NCBI GenBank assembly: GCA_964426185.1
Contig: CAYRPF010000042.1
Location: 1-25,842 of the forward strand
Reading direction: 5' to 3'
Origin: an uncultured archaeon
Lineage (GTDB): Archaea > Asgardarchaeota > Lokiarchaeia > Sigyniarchaeales > Promethearchaeaceae
Length of the DNA: 25,842 nt
The notes beneath the pieces were generated by a model, which searched no databases, was not told where the DNA came from, and was given only the letters and a program-made list of their open reading frames with translations. Below are positions 364-8,117 of this stretch, one piece after another. Made by a program: the position numbers and the translations under genes. Position 1 is the stretch's first letter; each line of letters starts with the position of its first letter.

Positions 364-1953
364 ATGAATAAGAGATCTCAACCTTCCCAAAATCAGCACA
401 ATCAATCTCAATCTTCTCAAACACCCCCAGCCCAAAATCTCGCTTTAAATTTACTAGAAGAACGTAATTTGCAAAAGAAAGTCTCCTGGCTTTCAATTTT
501 TCTGGTAATCACTGTATTTATCATCAAAGTCTTGGTATCATTTTTTACCCAAAGTCTTTCCTTTCTCATAGAACTTTCCGATTCCATCATTGATTTGATT
601 GCAGTCTTGATTACATTTATCGCTTTAAAAGAAAGTTCAAAAGAACCTGATTTTGACCATATGTTCGGTCATGAAAAAATCAATTCGTTTGCAGCCCTTC
701 TTCAAAGTCTGTTGATATTGGGAATTTATGGATGGATTCTTTATTCTTCCCTAAAAAATTGGATATTGGGTACATTACCAGATGCATCCAACACGTTATT
801 CGGGATTGGAGCCATAATATTAACCATAGGTTTAGTATTTGCAATCTCTCAAATTATTATCGGCATTGGCAAAAAGAGTAAAAATCAGCTGATTCTAGCA
901 CAAGGAGCCAATTTTCGGGGTGATTTTTATCGAAACATTACCGTTATTGTCAGTTTGACTGCCACATACTTTGGGATTAAATACATCGATGCCATTGTGG
1001 CTATTTTCTTTTCTTTAAAATCGCTATATGAAGGATTTAAAATTTTAAGGCAAAGTTATAGAGAATTGGTGGATACAAATCCAATTCCCCCAGAGAAAGT
1101 AAGAAAACTGCAGCAGAAATTAGAAAATATTCCAGGTGTCCGTGAAATTCAAGATTTGAAAATTCGCACTACGGGGAATAAACTCGATCTATCTTTATGC
1201 ATTAAAGTCAAAGGAAAGCAGCGAGCATTTCAAATAGATTTAATTACAGAGCGGATGTATAAAATTGTATCTGCTGAGTTTCCCGGCTATCATTGCAATA
1301 CCTATTTTTGCACAAGAAGTCCTAAACTTCATCCTCACTTGACAGATAGCCAATGGATATCTAACATTATAAGAAAATCGATTGATTTTTACCCAGAAAT
1401 AACCAATATCCATAATATCGCCATAGATCAGTTCCAAAACGAATTTTTAATACGTTTCCACATCGATTTACCAGGAAATTTAACGTTATCAGAGGGACAT
1501 TTGATAATTTCTCAATTTGAACAAGATTTACGAGATATCATCCAACAAACTTTGGATACTCACATTATGTTGAAATTTGTCTCACATTTGGAACCCACGC
1601 ATGATCTGGACCGAATTCACTTCCATCCAGTTTTGAATCCAGAAAATTATTCAGAGATAGAAAATAAGGATTTGGAGAAAAAATTAAAGAAAGAATCAGA
1701 GAAAGCATTAATTGTAGCAACAAGTAAAATTCGAGAAATAGTGCATTCTTTTTCTGAGGTGCAAGAAATTCACGACATTAGGTTATTGATGGAATCAGAT
1801 GGTTGGTTTTTATCCTTTATGCTCCATTTAAAAAGTGATTTAACCATTTTTCAAGCCCATATGTTGAATGAACAGATTGAACAGAAGTTATTTATGCAAT
1901 TTCCCCAACTTAGGGATTGTACCATTCATAACGAACCAAAAGAAGCTAACTAA
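364..1953 (+). CDS. Cation diffusion facilitator (CDF/FieF-like) transporter with three tandem cytosolic dimerisation domains
   Basis: About 6 TM helices; TM2 SDSIID; PDFDHMFGHEKIN signature; TM5 NFRGD; three C-terminal repeats, two with (G/A)H...HxEP patterns (EGH...HLEP; QAH...HNEP). Confidence 0.92.
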   Translation: MNKRSQPSQNQHNQSQSSQTPPAQNLALNLLEERNLQKKVSWLSIFLVITVFIIKVLVSFFTQSLSFLIELSDSIIDLIAVLITFIALKESSKEPDFDHMFGHEKINSFAALLQSLLILGIYGWILYSSLKNWILGTLPDASNTLFGIGAIILTIGLVFAISQIIIGIGKKSKNQLILAQGANFRGDFYRNITVIVSLTATYFGIKYIDAIVAIFFSLKSLYEGFKILRQSYRELVDTNPIPPEKVRKLQQKLENIPGVREIQDLKIRTTGNKLDLSLCIKVKGKQRAFQIDLITERMYKIVSAEFPGYHCNTYFCTRSPKLHPHLTDSQWISNIIRKSIDFYPEITNIHNIAIDQFQNEFLIRFHIDLPGNLTLSEGHLIISQFEQDLRDIIQQTLDTHIMLKFVSHLEPTHDLDRIHFHPVLNPENYSEIENKDLEKKLKKESEKALIVATSKIREIVHSFSEVQEIHDIRLLMESDGWFLSFMLHLKSDLTIFQAHMLNEQIEQKLFMQFPQLRDCTIHNEPKEAN

Positions 1954-1986: not shown

Positions 1987-2044
1987 AATGGGGAACGCTT
2001 CTTTTTGTACACCACGGACTTCTTATGCAATTAGGGTGGATAAT

Positions 2045-2566
2045 ATGGAAAAAAAAGAAGTGCAGGTATCAATCAGTTGGCATCCACTTAAAAGATATGT
2101 TAAAATGCCCAAGATTCTCCACGGTCCGCCAAATATGAATATTGTTGATGTGATTTATGAGATAGATCGGCAGTATTTCGAAAACCGTAAGAATTCAAAC
2201 CGAAGTCATCGTTTGGACTTCATGGCAGCAAAGATAAAAAGTACACTTCAAATGCTGTGGAACTCAGAAACTGGGTTGTTTTATGATGATGTTGGGGTAG
2301 AATGCAGGACACCTCCACCAGAATCTAAAACGGTCCCAGTTGAGAAGGATTGGAAAACACCCATTCCTAATGATGCTTATATCGTTTTAATGCCTGATGC
2401 TCAGTGCTGATGAAATGCCGTTGAAGAACGCTTAAAACCAGGGCGTTTTCTGAAAGGATTGAAAATGCAATTTGGAGAAAATTCTCCTATATATCAATTT
2501 TACTACTCTCAGTACCATTCTAGAAAACGTACCAACGCACAAGATTCAAATGATGAGAAGGAATAA
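2045..2566 (+). CDS. Putative selenoprotein with a C-U-U motif (173 aa if both TGA are read as Sec; 121 aa if translation stops at 2410); N-terminal part possibly beta-grasp/ubiquitin-like
   Basis: ATG at 2045 preceded by SD-like AGGGTGGA; TGC-TGA-TGA at 2405-2413; 50 further sense codons (NAVEERLKPGRFLKGLKMQFGENSPIYQFYYSQYHSRKRTNAQDSNDEKE) to TAA 2564-2566; SECIS-like hairpin at 2550-2584; all 19 other credible genes end in TAA. Confidence 0.72.
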
Positions 2567-2584
2567 ACTTCGTCTTTCTCTGAT
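2550..2584 (+). promoter_or_regulatory. Eukaryote-like (Lokiarchaeal-type) SECIS element
   Basis: AUGAU(2550-54), GAGAAGGA(2555-62), loop AUAAACUUCG, UCUUUCUC(2573-80), UGAU(2581-84). Uninterrupted 8-bp stem with one G-U pair, tandem G.A core, AAA 11 nt after AUGA. Possible lower helix AACG(CA)CAAGAUU 2534-2546 / AAUCUUGCGUU 2603-2613. Confidence 0.72.
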
Positions 2585-2611
2585 GCCGATGTCCCTCGGA
2601 AAAATCTTGCG

Positions 2612-2743: not shown

Positions 2744-4129
2744 ATGCGAAAAACTACTCAGATCTCTGGTATATCATTAATTTTAAGTTCTCCCGATGAA
2801 ATTCCAGATTTACAGTGGATTGGAGAAGAACTGTATCTATCTCAATTATTAGCAGCGTGGACCATAGTTGATCCAAAACATGATATTCCAATGAATCCTC
2901 AAATATTAGGTAAACCAGGAGTGGGGAAAACCACCCTTGCATACAGTACAGCTCGATCTTTAGGGTTACCTGTCTATATTTTTCAATGTACGGTTGACAC
3001 TCGCCCGGAAGATTTGTTAATCACGCCAGTAATCGGTAAAAATAATAACATAGAATATCATGCAAGTCCACTCGTTAGTGCGATGATAGAAGGTGGTGTG
3101 TGTATTTTAGATGAAGCCAATAGGATGGCAGAAAAATCATGGGCATCATTGGCACCTTTGTTAGATCAGAGGCGATATGTGGAATCGATCATTGCTGGGA
3201 TTAAAATTCCCGCCCATCCCAATTTTCGAATTTGCGTCACCATGAATGAGGATTCCAGCACTTTTGAAGTTCCTGAATATATTCATTCCCGCCTACAACC
3301 ACAGATTTTTATTGAATTCCCAGACTCTGAAGAAGAATTTCAGATCCTAAAATTTAACCTCCCGTTTGCATCGGACCAGATTATTGAGTATACGGTACGA
3401 TTTTTACAGAAAGCGCATAAGGCCAATAAGAATTACACTGTTCGAGATGGAATCAATATATGTCGCTATTATTTGAAGATTCAACATCATTTTTTTAGTA
3501 AATCAGATAACCCGAACTCTGTTTCAGCAGAATATGCATCCTTGGATCAATCATCTGCAGAACAGAGACAAAATAATGCCACAGATCCAAAAAAAATTAA
3601 TAAGCGCTTATTTCAACAATCCCTTTTCCATATTTTGGGGGAAGAAGGTTATAAATTCTATTTAGGGAAGGAAAACTCTACAGCAAACCATTCGGGTCAA
3701 TTCCAAGATATATTTGATCAGTTAAATGCAATTTTTTACGAAGATTCCATAGAAGATGATTTTAATGATGATTCTCTTATAGATAAATCTGAAAAGGAAG
3801 ATGACTTCGTAGAATTTTCACATGACGATGAAGAACTATTTGAAGATTTTGATGATGAACATATTGATCTGTTAGATTTGATGGAAGAGCAAGATACTAA
3901 ATGGTATGAAAAAAAGGAAGGCAAAGACATATTAGAGCCAATACTCGATGAAGATACAGAGGATGACCAAGATTTTTCCAAAAAAAATAAAGATCCAAAT
4001 GAAATCATTCGCGAATTTTTAGAACGTAAAAATAAAGAAAAGAAAAATAATGAATCGGATAATCTGAATAAACCTCATAGATCTAAGGAAAAATCTTCTT
4101 CGGGGGCAAATTCAAATGATTCTGTATAA
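2744..4129 (+). CDS. MoxR-like AAA+ ATPase (AAA_5/dynein-related) with a long acidic disordered C-terminal tail
   Basis: Walker A GKPGVGKTT; Walker B ILDEANR; IPAHPNFRICVTMN sensor region; D/E-rich then K-rich tail. Confidence 0.9.
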   Translation: MRKTTQISGISLILSSPDEIPDLQWIGEELYLSQLLAAWTIVDPKHDIPMNPQILGKPGVGKTTLAYSTARSLGLPVYIFQCTVDTRPEDLLITPVIGKNNNIEYHASPLVSAMIEGGVCILDEANRMAEKSWASLAPLLDQRRYVESIIAGIKIPAHPNFRICVTMNEDSSTFEVPEYIHSRLQPQIFIEFPDSEEEFQILKFNLPFASDQIIEYTVRFLQKAHKANKNYTVRDGINICRYYLKIQHHFFSKSDNPNSVSAEYASLDQSSAEQRQNNATDPKKINKRLFQQSLFHILGEEGYKFYLGKENSTANHSGQFQDIFDQLNAIFYEDSIEDDFNDDSLIDKSEKEDDFVEFSHDDEELFEDFDDEHIDLLDLMEEQDTKWYEKKEGKDILEPILDEDTEDDQDFSKKNKDPNEIIREFLERKNKEKKNNESDNLNKPHRSKEKSSSGANSNDSV

Positions 4130-6170
4130 AAATCTGCGGATATTTCCGACTTTTCATGATTCCTTGGATTTTTCTTCAGAAATCCGAAATTATTTTTATC
4201 AACACCCCCCTGATCTCATAGCTGTCGAATTTCCAGAAAATCTAAAATTTCTTATTTTGCAAGGAATCGATAGATTGCCAAAAATTTCGGTGGTGCTCTA
4301 TTACGATGAATATCTCGACACTCAGCTTTATATTCCCATAACGCCCGCAGATTCTTTAGTAGAAGCGCTTCGCTTAGGCGAAGAATATGCAATCCCCGTT
4401 GAGTTCATTGATATTTTCATAAAAAATTATCAACCTGCAATTGTTCCTTTGCCCGATCCATACGTTCTGCACTATATCCCATATTCAAAATTCTATGATC
4501 TGTTATGTGAAAATTTACAACTCAAAGAGAAAGCTCAGATATTTCTCCGAAAATATCAACATAGCCAAAATCACCAAGAAAATCCAGATCATTCAAATCA
4601 TCCAATTCATCCAAGTAATCATAAAGAACCTTCATCTTTCGAAATTCCCGGAGAAGAAGATGAAAAGTGGTTACATTCCGCAGAAGAATTGGATTCACTA
4701 CGAAATTTCTATATGGCTTCTCGATTAGCAGAATTAATGAAGTTAAATCCGAATTCCACAATATTAGTTGTTGTAGGAATGAACCATTGGGAAAATATCC
4801 GCGTTCTATTGGAACACCAAATCACAGATTCAGAGATTACAGCTTTTGAACCAGAGATAGAAGCTCAATTGATGAATGTGCGAAATTCAGACATACCAAA
4901 ACTTTTTTCTAACATCCCAAATATCTTATTCCAATTTGAAATTCATCGACAACAGCAAAAAAGTGAATGGGACGACCTGAATAATTTCTCAAAAATACGA
5001 CAAAATCACTTAATTCGAAAACTTTTAAATAAATTTGATATATTGGAAGGAATCCAAGATATTTTAAGTCGCTCATTGGATAGATATGCAAATGAATATA
5101 AGGAGCGAATCTCATTCCAAAAACTAAAAATTTTAACCCAATATGCTCGCAATTTGGCAATTATTGACAATCAAATCATTCCAGATCTGTTTAATACCGT
5201 TTTAGCAGCTAAAAGTATCATTAACGATGATTTTGCATGGATTGTGTACGAGGAGTGCATTGATTATCCTTTTTCTGAAGATTTTTCTGATTTACCTTCC
5301 CTGCACTTCTCAGAATCTGGAATTGTATTGAATGGAAAACGTTTTAGCATTCGAAGAAATATCCCTGTTCGGTTAAAATCAATTAAACTCCCATTACAGC
5401 CAAAACTCAAGGAAAATTACCAAGGAGAATGGAAAAAAGAATGGATGAAGGGGAGATATCAGTTGGTTTCACATATACCCGAAGATATTTTTGAAGAACA
5501 ATATTTTCAGCATATAAGAAACCGTTCACTTTCCCTTTTACGAGATAAATATGTTAAAATTCATAAATTTTCTTCTACTCTAATGGATGGGATAGATTTT
5601 CGCAAAACAATTCGTAATTGGCCTTTTAAACATGAAATTTATGTCCGAGAAGAAGTCCCCATCCAAGGTTCAGTAGATAGTGTAGTTGTCATTTTCGATT
5701 ATGATAATGAAACTTACAAGAAATACCCCTATCGAATGATGTGGTATGCAGAACATGATCATGAAAGTGATTTGGGATTTTACAGTACCTATCCTGGAGT
5801 GAATTTAGTTGGACCTGGAATATCTCGAATTGAATTGGGAGGAGTGGTATCATTTTATCCTCCACGTGGAGTCCCAAATATTTGGTCTAGGCGCTTTCAA
5901 AAACAATATCCTTTTGTTCATTCAACAGACGAACTTCTTTTATTGAGTGCACTGTTATTTGCTCAAAAGAAGTTTATCACTTATGTAGCACCTTCTAAGC
6001 CTCGGCAATTCTTTTATCAAATGGCAGAGAAGTTGAATCTTTCCATAATATTTCTCCCACTAAATCGGTTCAATCCAGTAAGTTTACGAGCATTGCGTCA
6101 TCTACATATATTGGCAGGGAAAAATAAGCGTAATTTGGCATATAAATACATTAATAAGCGAAAATACTAA
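4116..6170 (+). CDS. MoxR partner protein: N-terminal TraB/YehM-like domain and C-terminal degenerate vWA-like region
   Basis: Overlaps the AAA gene by 14 nt; H...PDLIAVEFP and VVVGMNHW motifs resemble TraB/GumN and YehM; GIDFRKTIRN resembles the G-x-D-x-R-R-T-I-R motif that precedes CoxE-type vWA domains. Confidence 0.6.
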   Translation: MILYKNLRIFPTFHDSLDFSSEIRNYFYQHPPDLIAVEFPENLKFLILQGIDRLPKISVVLYYDEYLDTQLYIPITPADSLVEALRLGEEYAIPVEFIDIFIKNYQPAIVPLPDPYVLHYIPYSKFYDLLCENLQLKEKAQIFLRKYQHSQNHQENPDHSNHPIHPSNHKEPSSFEIPGEEDEKWLHSAEELDSLRNFYMASRLAELMKLNPNSTILVVVGMNHWENIRVLLEHQITDSEITAFEPEIEAQLMNVRNSDIPKLFSNIPNILFQFEIHRQQQKSEWDDLNNFSKIRQNHLIRKLLNKFDILEGIQDILSRSLDRYANEYKERISFQKLKILTQYARNLAIIDNQIIPDLFNTVLAAKSIINDDFAWIVYEECIDYPFSEDFSDLPSLHFSESGIVLNGKRFSIRRNIPVRLKSIKLPLQPKLKENYQGEWKKEWMKGRYQLVSHIPEDIFEEQYFQHIRNRSLSLLRDKYVKIHKFSSTLMDGIDFRKTIRNWPFKHEIYVREEVPIQGSVDSVVVIFDYDNETYKKYPYRMMWYAEHDHESDLGFYSTYPGVNLVGPGISRIELGGVVSFYPPRGVPNIWSRRFQKQYPFVHSTDELLLLSALLFAQKKFITYVAPSKPRQFFYQMAEKLNLSIIFLPLNRFNPVSLRALRHLHILAGKNKRNLAYKYINKRKY

Positions 6171-7250
6171 ATGTTACATGTTAACATGATTGAACTAGAG
6201 AACAAATGGAAAAAATGGAATATTCCAATAGATCGTAAAGAGTATATCCATTATTTATCATTTTTCTTAATTACATCGTTGATACTCTTTTTTCTAGGTA
6301 TCTTTCTGAACGAAACTAATTTGGATGAAATTTTATATGCATCAAATCCGTTTGTTTTCTGGTTTGTTAGAATTATTGCAGAATTTGGTTCAATCGCGGG
6401 TATTTTAATTGCTTTTTGTGGAATTCGTCTATATGTTAAACCCAGAATTGGAAGAAGTGCACTTTTTGCATATGGAATTGCTTGGATTGTTACAACCTTT
6501 TTGAAAATAATTGTGCGAGATTTACGCCCCTCTCAAAATATTTATCAAGGGAGACCATTAGGATTGGGTTGGGGATTTCCATCAAGTATATCTGCTGGAT
6601 TAGTATGCTTTTGGGGATTCGTGCTTTTTCACGCAATAAAATATCCTAATCTAAAAGTTCGGAAAATATTGAATTGGATGGGATGGATTTTCACAATTTT
6701 AATTCCGTTCAGCCATATTATAATTGGAATGAGTGATCTGGAGGATATTTTTGGAGGTTATCTTATTGGATTTCCAATTCTTGGATTTTTTCTTTTATTT
6801 GATGCAAAATTGTCAAAAATATATATTCAAGGGTTAAAAATTATAATAATTGGGTTTATTCTTTCCGTTTTTTATGTTGGACTGGGATACATCACTTTTT
6901 CATTGATATTTCCGGAATATTCTCAAGAAATCTTTGAATCACTAACTATTTCCAGTGGAATTATTCTTGGTTTGACAAGCATTTATGCGATTACTATTAA
7001 TCAAAAGTGGTCTAAATTTGAAAATTTCCCCATAAAAAGGCGAAATTTGATTTTTTTTATCCAAATTTTATTAATTCTGGTTATTTCTATTGGATTTGAG
7101 TTGTTGTTTCCTAATATTGTTATGTATGGAATAATCCAGGGATTAATTATTGTAATATTATCGATAATAAGTATTCTACCTGCGATTGTGCTAAATTTCT
7201 TAGAAAGGAAAGGGATTTCCACAACCTCGACAGAATTGAGCAGCAACTAA
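6171..7250 (+). CDS. PAP2-superfamily integral membrane protein, probably catalytically inactive
   Basis: Multiple TMs; C1 KIIVRDLRP intact; C2 is FPSSI (canonical PSGH); C3 is SHIIIGMSDLED (canonical SRxxxxxHxxxD). Confidence 0.8.
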   Translation: MLHVNMIELENKWKKWNIPIDRKEYIHYLSFFLITSLILFFLGIFLNETNLDEILYASNPFVFWFVRIIAEFGSIAGILIAFCGIRLYVKPRIGRSALFAYGIAWIVTTFLKIIVRDLRPSQNIYQGRPLGLGWGFPSSISAGLVCFWGFVLFHAIKYPNLKVRKILNWMGWIFTILIPFSHIIIGMSDLEDIFGGYLIGFPILGFFLLFDAKLSKIYIQGLKIIIIGFILSVFYVGLGYITFSLIFPEYSQEIFESLTISSGIILGLTSIYAITINQKWSKFENFPIKRRNLIFFIQILLILVISIGFELLFPNIVMYGIIQGLIIVILSIISILPAIVLNFLERKGISTTSTELSSN

Positions 7251-8117
7251 ATTACGTTCTCCACATTCTGGGCAATATTTCACAGAGAATTCATTAGCAA
7301 TTTCATTAAAAGATGAATCGTCCATGTTCTTTTCTTCAGGTGGCATGGAAGATTTTCTCTTTTCTGCAGATTTTTGATTTATTTTGGGGAGAGTAGAGAC
7401 CTTCCGAAAAGGAAAGGGCAGTGAAGCGCTAAGATTTGAAAGGTATTGTTCTACTTCTTGTGCTGTGACTTTATTTTTTGATTGATTTAATTCGGAAAAA
7501 TCCACATTTAACTTAGGAAAAGCACATTTTTCAAATTTAAAAGAGTGAAGGTGAGGCGCTATTTTCCCTAAAGAGTTTATATTTAAATAATTTGAATCTT
7601 TAAACCATAACTGGGCCAAATTTTCTGCTTGAAGCGTTTGCAGATCAATTGTGCAAAAATGACAATGGTTAAGAAACTGAATTGATTTTAAATTTTGTAA
7701 TACTGTTTTCCCTAAAAATAAAGTAGATTGTTGAGTATTAATTAAATGCAACATCTCCAAACGATTATCTCCTAAAATATCCCCTTTATATCTAAGAAAT
7801 TTAGAATTTTCGATTAACCATCGCTTCCAATGGGGGAAATTTCCAACAATATCAAGAATATCCATATATTCTATATATGAAAAGAACACCTGCTCAAGCT
7901 GTGAGAAAGAAGGATAAAAAAGAGAAAAACTAAAGTATTTGCATCCGATCACTTCAATATATTTCAATTTCGGCCAATGGTCTTCATCTAGCAGGATTTG
8001 GCAATTTGAGCAATTATGAAAACTTAATTTCTCAATCTCTTGTGAATTTTCTGGAATTTTAGAAAGATCGTTGGGAAATTTTAAGTATTTCCGTTTTTTA
8101 AACAGTAGTTCCCGCAT
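7200..8117 (-). CDS. Leucine-rich-repeat-like protein with C-terminal zinc ribbon
   Basis: Repeating LxxLxFxxC/S pattern (LKYIEVIGC, LKSIQFLNHC, LHSFKFEKC); terminal CPECG...CRGCG. The ORF is open from 8180; ATG 8117 avoids overlap with the upstream gene. Confidence 0.7.
   Translation of the reverse strand: MRELLFKKRKYLKFPNDLSKIPENSQEIEKLSFHNCSNCQILLDEDHWPKLKYIEVIGCKYFSFSLFYPSFSQLEQVFFSYIEYMDILDIVGNFPHWKRWLIENSKFLRYKGDILGDNRLEMLHLINTQQSTLFLGKTVLQNLKSIQFLNHCHFCTIDLQTLQAENLAQLWFKDSNYLNINSLGKIAPHLHSFKFEKCAFPKLNVDFSELNQSKNKVTAQEVEQYLSNLSASLPFPFRKVSTLPKINQKSAEKRKSSMPPEEKNMDDSSFNEIANEFSVKYCPECGERNLVAAQFCRGCGNPFPF

Follow-up and report, generated by a model that had tools for sequence, protein, structure and literature searches.

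The stretch of DNA analysed here (the window) spans 25,842 nucleotides (nt) of contig CAYRPF010000042.1 (assembly GCA_964426185.1) from an uncultured archaeon of the Lokiarchaeia, in the Asgard archaea. Behind a cation efflux gene, it carries an open reading frame (ORF) that is conventionally called to a TGA stop directly after a cysteine codon, and that is predicted to continue through two adjacent in-frame TGA codons as the gene of a tandem-selenocysteine protein (the UU gene, U standing for selenocysteine, Sec). The frame opens with ATG at 2045 and runs to TGC at 2405-2407, TGA at 2408-2410 and TGA at 2411-2413; exactly 50 sense codons (2414-2563) then precede a TAA stop at 2564-2566, giving a readthrough product of 173 residues. 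This layout had been described in an initial annotation made from the sequence alone, and was confirmed by sequence and translation. The alignment of homologues and the GGGTGGA motif ahead of ATG 2045 support this codon, and not ATG 1988, as the predicted start; homologues from family f3 (the related families are labelled f1 to f6) that lack an apparent start codon begin at GTG within AGGTGA. All 19 other non-nested window ORFs of at least 100 amino acids (aa) end in TAA, as had been stated, and only the ORF at 2045 ends in TGA.

The probability of a 50-codon open run in random sequence is 0.022 at the window's 33.8% GC, which agrees with the earlier rough estimate of about 2%. However, the genome itself (G000; 3.26 Mb, 155 contigs, 92% complete) provides a less favorable background. 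Among its 2660 ORFs with 100 aa or more, 517 stop at TGA; at least 50 open codons follow the stop in 7.2% of these, and 20 of them stop at TGA-TGA. Thus, the observation in a single genome is a lead only, and the comparative data are decisive. Other TGA-TGA ORFs with long open extensions (contigs C11 and C1) were rejected as probably due to chance, since their domain matches were N-terminal only or lay in a separate in-frame downstream gene.

Of 61 related genomes, 51 were positive for the gene in a six-frame search reading through stops, with two TGA codons within nearly every match and homology continuing beyond them. When 32 homologues were extracted and aligned (alignment A1), adjacent UU was found at the same place in every one, within the motif PD[AS]GCUU or, in a paralogous subgroup, HADUU. 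Residues D41, D82, U122, U123 and Y153 were invariant and R129 was conserved; the Cys was not invariant. The invariant unit is therefore UU and not CUU: of the Cys-Sec-Sec site originally proposed, the Sec pair is common to all homologues, whereas the Cys is absent from the HADUU subgroup. The 35 to 50 residues C-terminal to UU were conserved as well (xxVxxRLDxGxFK...FGK..E.FAHYF). By the Nei-Gojobori method, applied to pairs with unsaturated synonymous divergence, omega was 0.06 to 0.27 after UU and 0.06 to 0.15 before it. Judged from these coding sequences, purifying selection acts on the part behind the UGAs as it does on the remainder of the predicted protein. In GC-richer genomes, several homologues close with a TGA stop behind the conserved extension. 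Neither TAA nor TAG was found at either TGA position in any homologue, and none ended at the Cys with such a codon.

A phylum-wide profile search recovered the gene in 67 of 301 sampled genomes, all of one class, from families f1, f3, f5 and f6; its presence in f2 and f4 is known from the search of related genomes. Within f3, 60 of the 69 sampled genomes carried it, often in two to five copies. Every one of the approximately 88 full-length matches contained at least two TGA codons, and a single marginal partial match lay elsewhere. Conservation on both sides of the UGAs had been anticipated, and the full-length homologues indeed all keep TGA-TGA and continue in frame. The expected alternation of TGA with TGC or TGT (CCC, CUC or CCU homologues) was not seen: Cys occupied neither U position in any of the 32 aligned homologues, the approximately 88 phylum-wide matches or the protein-library relatives. 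Such Cys forms often support the case for a selenoprotein but do not define one. The protein-library relatives comprised 84 proteins from a profile search of 1.84 billion representative proteins, most of them cut off exactly before UU at profile position 117 and a few translated as Trp-Trp by pipelines that use a TGA=Trp code. The nearest named relatives of the gene were found in Candidatus Harpocratesius repetitus and in a metagenome-assembled genome labelled 'Promethearchaeota archaeon', which confirms the assignment to Lokiarchaeia. One library protein, P0008 (157 aa, from a 20,228-bp JGI metagenome contig and seen as protein sequence alone), reads TPDATC-V-S-FLVEKRL where the family has C-U-U and is the only near-orthologue without Sec, which may reflect a genuine loss of Sec, a frameshift or an error of assembly; a metagenome search found no loci related to it.

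More distant Sec-free relatives occur in Bathyarchaeia, where they are listed as 'hypothetical protein' in NCBI and IMG (alignment A3). They are homologous to the UU family over 135 columns (hhalign probability 99.8%, E 2e-27), share the beta-grasp and C-terminal helix and have a conserved Cys aligned with Cys121. In contrast to the UU family, they are shorter, at about 130 aa, and carry Ile, Thr or Ser at the U positions.

The genome encodes machinery for Sec, as the initial annotation had required. Its tRNA-Sec scored 51 bits, over the Rfam cut-off, SepSecS scored 439 bits, and its SelD gene contains one in-frame TGA, consistent with a Sec-containing SelD. Taken with the comparative data, these sequences make it very probable that both adjacent UGAs (2408-2413) are read as Sec and that the tandem-Sec selenoprotein is real.

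The published Lokiarchaeial Sec insertion sequence (lokiSECIS) consists of AUGA, a 9-bp stem, an 11-nt loop that prefers A at its first five positions and G at its last, and GA (Mariotti et al. 2016, PMC4989117). An element of this type was found behind the window's UGAs, where a hairpin had been noted about 140 nt downstream: AUGA lies at 2550-2553, +142 from the first UGA, followed by arms at 2555-2562 and 2573-2580 and by GA at 2582-2583. The loop (2563-2572; AUAAACUUCG) is 10 nt long and A-rich, ends in G and contains the TAA stop. Minimum free energy folds gave the same helix. Across the family, the lokiSECIS pattern was present 100 to 150 nt past the first UGA in 24 of 32 genes, at positions from +114 to +144, against an expectation of 0.008 per window in the same loci. 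In an alignment of 22 elements with short loops (A2), 89% of cells were paired, compared with 44 to 54% when partners were slid, a figure that is partly circular because the scan set was pre-selected for pairing; the position of the elements and the double changes, which occurred in all nine pairs, are not circular. None of 500 shuffles matched the observed score. An element in the corresponding position was seen in the two closest relatives; it shows compensatory changes and has a longer loop in both, in one case with a ministem. In tandem paralogue pairs, a single SECIS is placed behind the second gene; one SECIS common to HdrA and VhuD has already been published (Mariotti et al. 2016, PMC4989117).

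A second, smaller hairpin lies 2 nt past the SECIS of the window. Its f3 counterpart (AUAGGA-UUGYG-UCCUAU; for example, L025:1417-1446, minus strand) has the same 2-nt spacing and was 88% paired, compared with 41 to 55% in slid controls, with modest covariation. From its sequence, the window's hairpin may be either a terminator or a helix accessory to the SECIS.

Genome-wide, the loose SECIS pattern gave 63 matches versus 35 in a shuffled genome, a high background in which only the tight subset with an [AG]UAAAC..G loop was informative. Elsewhere in the genome, the same loop type was found behind an HdrA gene with canonical Sec, two small U-containing ORFs and a third ORF reading QUUG. A second candidate tandem-Sec gene was observed on contig C15 (29765-30142, minus strand; L171:466-804, minus strand), a 113-codon ORF reading ...LLITLEKTSQUUGLIDFYHV... 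with a SECIS directly behind it (AUGA at C15:29746, loop AUAAACGAUG, 9 of 9 pairs). Its paralogues at C86:1069-1389 and C16:15239-15673 read RGUCG and KGUCG; none belongs to a Pfam family, and only three weak relatives, with one or two TGA codons, were found in 60 genomes. The HdrA gene (C88:8941-10977, minus strand; L176) carries Sec at the canonical DDCSIU and a second U at SLUTTSG. Its SECIS, with AUGA at C88:8432, lies approximately 500 nt downstream and fits the published element shared by HdrA and VhuD.

The structure of the predicted protein was modelled with AlphaFold2 from alignment A1 (mean predicted local distance difference test score, pLDDT, 86.4; predicted template modelling score 0.84). 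Behind the beta-grasp domain, the extension formed three helices (residues 123-127, 132-143 and 148-158), and residues 164-173 had a pLDDT below 50. The best Foldseek matches were Urm1, SAMP1, HVO_2177, MoaD and CysO (E about 0.02, probability up to 1.0, template modelling score up to 0.66 on the target). An independent comparison against representatives with VIA-align placed the same proteins first (Z 6.7 to 7.5) and aligned their C-termini to model residues 119-123. Sequence searches of Pfam, NCBIfam and the Protein Data Bank returned nothing significant, whether the query was the whole protein, either half or the family profile, and the family sequence profile and Pfam identified no MoaD, ThiS or Urm1 relatives at E values up to 1. 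Because the fold matches are middling (best Z 7.5, Foldseek E about 0.02) and a sequence relation is absent, the domain is called a beta-grasp on the same scaffold, and not a member of the MoaD/ThiS family.

The genes surrounding the UU gene were compared in 20 fetched loci. The arsenite efflux transporter ACR3 (TIGR00832, over the equivalog cut-off) was found nearby in 13, all of them in f3 or f4, and an ArsR regulator in 12. The f3 and f4 operons are of the ars type: a divergent ArsR/SmtB regulator, ACR3, a 95-aa protein termed F3, and then the UU gene. Gene orders include ACR3, CpaM/HgcA-like, ferredoxin, thioredoxin-fold CxC, UU, ArsC-like, and a minimal form in which ACR3, divergent from ArsR, is followed by UU and ArsC-like. 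F3 is unannotated and was predicted to have a thioredoxin fold (pLDDT 82), with Foldseek matches to thioredoxins and glutaredoxins at a probability of about 1.0. It has an invariant DxC-A-C, with C-A-C at the CxxC position, and lies directly upstream of the UU gene in 10 loci; one member is extended at its N-terminus by a stretch with many CC pairs (NSCCTQSTSCCG). Directly 3' of the UU gene in at least six genomes (loci L182 to L187, additional to the 20) is an ArsC-like gene of the low-molecular-weight protein tyrosine phosphatase (LMW-PTP) type, which matches PF01451 and scores 116 to 141 bits with TIGR02691, under the cut-off. The proposal that the UU protein replaces ArsC was weakened by the presence of this gene. 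Glutaredoxin-type ArsC was found in none of the 61 genomes.

Some Lokiarchaeial ars operons also encode a CpaM-like methyltransferase fused to an HgcA-like corrinoid protein, accompanied by a 2x[4Fe-4S] ferredoxin that is HgcB-like; fusion protein and ferredoxin both score below the NCBIfam equivalog cut-offs. From these sequences, the pair may be a metal(loid) methylation module beside ACR3. In 14 of 23 loci, translation of the Bathyarchaeial Sec-free relative is coupled to that of a DUF1786 protein, and an HxlR-type regulator is encoded divergently; other neighbors were ACR3 in 5 loci, an SBF transporter in 1 and an ABC-2 exporter in 6. In the window, the upstream cation diffusion facilitator (CDF) gene and the UU gene are probably separate transcripts, and the CDF neighbor is also present in Ca. 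Harpocratesius (L059). Downstream, positions 2744-4129 encode an AAA_5 ATPase of the MoxR/dynein type whose tail is long and acidic, overlapped by a 684-aa ORF (4116-6170) without a Pfam or NCBIfam match. The features are listed in Table 1.

Table 1. Positions of the predicted UU gene, its elements and associated genes. Positions without a locus prefix refer to the window, except for the B2 gene, which lies in metagenome loci.
Feature	Position	Strand	Basis or remarks
Predicted selenoprotein (UU) gene	2045..2566	+	173 codons including two predicted Sec codons, then TAA; translation and full-length homologue alignment
TGC-TGA-TGA, predicted Cys121-Sec122-Sec123	2405..2413	+	UU in 32 of 32 homologues; Cys variable
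Shine-Dalgarno-like GGGTGGA, putative ribosome-binding site	2034..2040	+	4 nt ahead of ATG 2045
Beta-grasp domain (ubiquitin-like, MoaD/ThiS/SAMP/Urm1-type), residues 1-120	2045..2404	+	AlphaFold2, Foldseek, VIA-align
C-terminal extension	2414..2563	+	Three helices (123-158); weakly conserved, low-confidence tail 164-173
lokiSECIS-type element overlapping the end of the coding sequence	2550..2583	+	Pattern scan, minimum free energy fold, published consensus, family comparison
Small hairpin CCGA-UGUCCC-UCGG	2586..2599	+	2 nt past the SECIS GA; T-run 2611-2617 next
CDF metal efflux transporter, upstream neighbor	364..1953	+	TIGR01297, 189.8 bits; Cation_efflux and ZT_dimer
F3	L076:7662-7958; L069:7574-7963		L076 copy with nine orthologues (alignment A4)
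CpaM/HgcA-like module	L069:5552-7198 and 7239-7547; L182:1313-3330; L183:2030-4046		
B2 gene	~4919-5998		Directly ahead of the Sec-free homologue; metagenome loci L101, L111, L123 and others

The explanation that best accounts for these data is a predicted tandem-Sec protein with a lokiSECIS and a beta-grasp fold, which we consider highly probable, together with a proposed soft-ligand site. The UGA-UGA pair would be read as Sec by machinery of the archaeal/eukaryote type, under the direction of the Loki-type SECIS, which begins 142 nt past the first UGA and includes the stop codon. The (Cys)-Sec-Sec would stand about where sulfur carriers end in Gly-Gly, with the chain running on into the three-helix extension. 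The vicinal selenolates, together with the neighboring Cys where present, may form a soft-ligand site, which would serve either to bind and pass on As(III) or a comparable thiophilic metal(loid), or as a vicinal diselenide or selenenylsulfide redox center. In the ars operons that house most relatives, the ACR3 pump, F3 with its thioredoxin fold and CxC, and the ArsC-like reductase would be candidate partners of the UU protein.

Several observations weigh against parts of this explanation, in addition to the middling fold matches. The UU gene of the window's genome lies outside an ars operon, an ArsR-ACR3 pair stands alone on contig C96, and F3 and ArsC were not found in this genome; the contexts in other f1 genera are unrelated. 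The ars linkage is thus lost in the window's own genome, and the redox or soft-metal site first suggested draws on the context of sister families, which this genome does not share. Sec-free relatives have Ile, Thr or Ser, and not Cys, at the U positions, an uncommon pattern for a site of catalysis or ligand binding, and the HADUU subgroup has no Cys of CUU. The SECIS hairpins are AU-rich and short, and their folding z-scores do not stand out. Rfam SECIS models had no match in the window scan, in which the sole match was a chance sRNA; these models fail for Loki too (Mariotti et al. 2016, PMC4989117). A covariance model (R1) run on the whole genome after filtering missed the window's own element and gave one weak match (E 0.27), a search that is uninformative because scoring covered only 150 of 7036 candidates and AT-rich f3 sequences dominate the model.

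With respect to function, a metal(loid)-related role is likely for the family as a whole, and for the window's copy is inferred from the relatives' sequences. Drawing on gene context, we place metal(loid) handling by the family at roughly an even chance, of which the larger share falls to a ligand-binding or chaperone role and the smaller to redox chemistry. Tentatively, and at somewhat under even odds, the obligate Sec-Sec on a ubiquitin fold may represent a new metalloid-handling class in Asgard archaea, a selenolate chaperone or redox partner for As(III) and Sb(III) (or Hg or an organometal) that feeds ACR3.

Of the other accounts, the one that fares best accepts the tandem-Sec protein and assigns it redox chemistry instead of metal binding. 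Electrons would then pass, by way of an eight-membered diselenide or selenenylsulfide ring formed by Sec-Sec or Cys-Sec, between F3, with its thioredoxin fold and CxC, and either the ArsC-like reductase or a different acceptor. We consider this possible but unlikely. The G-C-U-U of the family resembles the redox tail of animal thioredoxin reductase, Gly-Cys-Sec-Gly, and the flanking genes would suit such a route: in 10 loci the gene immediately upstream encodes a thioredoxin-fold protein whose CxC occupies the active-site position, and the LMW-PTP-type ArsC-like gene, whose class is coupled to thioredoxin in bacteria, follows immediately in at least six genomes. Redox enzymes also make up the majority of known selenoproteins (2026 review, PMC13188914). 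However, many loci, including that of the window's genome, keep the UU gene without the F3 and ArsC-like genes. Further, the Cys is absent from the HADUU subgroup, the Sec-free relatives lack a second redox-active residue beside their conserved Cys, and no flavin or NAD(P)H domain lies nearby.

It is improbable that the protein is instead a ubiquitin-like or sulfur/selenium carrier, with the helical extension a propeptide removed to expose a C-terminal Cys-Sec-Sec, which would undergo activation or conjugation as the Gly-Gly end of MoaD, ThiS, SAMP or Urm1 does. The beta-grasp most resembles the sulfur-carrier subgroup (MoaD, ThiS, SAMP, Urm1 and CysO), whose Gly-Gly aligns to model residues 119-123 at the C-U-U position, and ubiquitin-system genes occur in Asgard archaea. 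In contrast to these carriers, the UU protein has no Gly-Gly or free C-terminus there: (G)C-U-U is followed by 35 to 50 further conserved residues, 50 in the window's protein. This extension is as constrained as the domain and is predicted with high confidence to pack on it, and is therefore unlike a disposable propeptide. E1-like (ThiF/MoeB/UbaA), JAMM and rhodanese genes did not recur among the family's neighbors in the loci compared, and the family profile shows no sequence relationship to ThiS or MoaD. Least probable of all is an ordinary 121-residue protein with a fail-safe TGA-TGA stop, a chance or relic open frame and a terminator hairpin, which would fit the commonness of tandem stops and long open frames in this genome, the truncation of the family at the Cys by public gene callers and the T-run behind the downstream hairpin, but which is contradicted by an extension conserved in sequence, length and frame over six families under the purifying selection described above, by its three confident helices packed on the domain, by the lack of TAA or TAG at both positions where TAA ends every neighboring gene, and by a SECIS of the published type at a fixed distance.

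The predicted tandem-Sec family was compared with known systems. The Lokiarchaeial selenoproteins HdrA, VhuD, VhuU, PrxL and SPS (PMC4989117, PMC11227280) share its lineage, its recoding system and the 3' lokiSECIS, and likewise include multi-Sec genes and one SECIS for two adjacent genes. The UU family differs in being unrelated to them and outside the published lists of five to seven Asgard families, in its adjacent Sec residues, in having no Cys-form orthologue, and in a SECIS that overlaps the stop in the window's genus. Huang et al. (2024, PMC11227280) list seven selenoprotein families from over 400 Asgard genomes, identified through homology to families already known, and the earlier search by Mariotti et al. 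(2016, PMC4989117) depended on known selenoproteins or on homologues with Cys. Since the UU family has no Cys-form orthologue, screens based on homology or Cys would miss it.

Bacterial CU/CC selenoproteins (the SAO system, HgcA and MbdU) offer a second comparison. The CU/CC motifs of these overlooked proteins have been argued to mark heavy-metal interaction (Haft & Gwadz, bioRxiv 10.1101/2022.07.06.499078; PMC13188914), the closest precedent for the function proposed here. Like the UU family, they are cut by gene callers at the Cys before UGA, about 50 residues early, and combine vicinal chalcogens with a location beside metal(loid) transporters, ArsR/SmtB regulators and HgcA-like proteins. 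They differ in having a bacterial SECIS within the coding sequence, other folds, and CU/CC in place of an invariant UU; none of their NCBIfam models matches the UU family. The NCBIfam names 'ArsM_*_UU' were considered as a precedent for adjacent UU and withdrawn, since the review table describes two separate Sec residues (UxxG, CxxU).

A third comparison is with ArsD, which has vicinal Cys12-Cys13 and Cys18, and with the C-terminal Cys-Cys pair of MerA, both of which combine vicinal chalcogens with metal(loid) operons. These Cys-Cys pairs bind As(III) or Hg(II) and pass the ligand to a pump or active site. The UU gene occupies a similar place in its operons, between the pump and arsC. ArsD, however, is thioredoxin-like, as is F3, whereas the UU protein is a beta-grasp with Sec in place of Cys and is found with ACR3 and not ArsAB; Pfam ArsD did not match it.

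The UU family is undescribed in the searchable literature and catalogues, and the inference of a previously unrecognised selenoprotein family holds: no Pfam or NCBIfam model covers it. The 2026 review (PMC13188914) counts 11 archaeal selenoprotein families and does not list an adjacent-UU motif. Full-text searching for selenocysteine described as adjacent, tandem or consecutive gave no relevant result, subscription-only literature being outside its reach. The family would thus be a new archaeal one, joining the 11 already counted, and is common in Lokiarchaeia. In public databases its proteins are cut off at the Cys or rendered as Trp-Trp, and it marks a blind spot of screens that rest on known families or Cys-containing homologues. 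If the prediction is true, this would be the first selenoprotein with invariant adjacent Sec-Sec and no Cys-form orthologue, and the eukaryote-like Loki-type SECIS machinery would routinely read two consecutive UGAs. The family would then offer a natural test case for the decoding of consecutive UGAs by a recoding system thought to be ancestral to the eukaryotic one, and would tie selenium use to the handling of arsenic and other metalloids in the archaeal lineage closest to eukaryotes.

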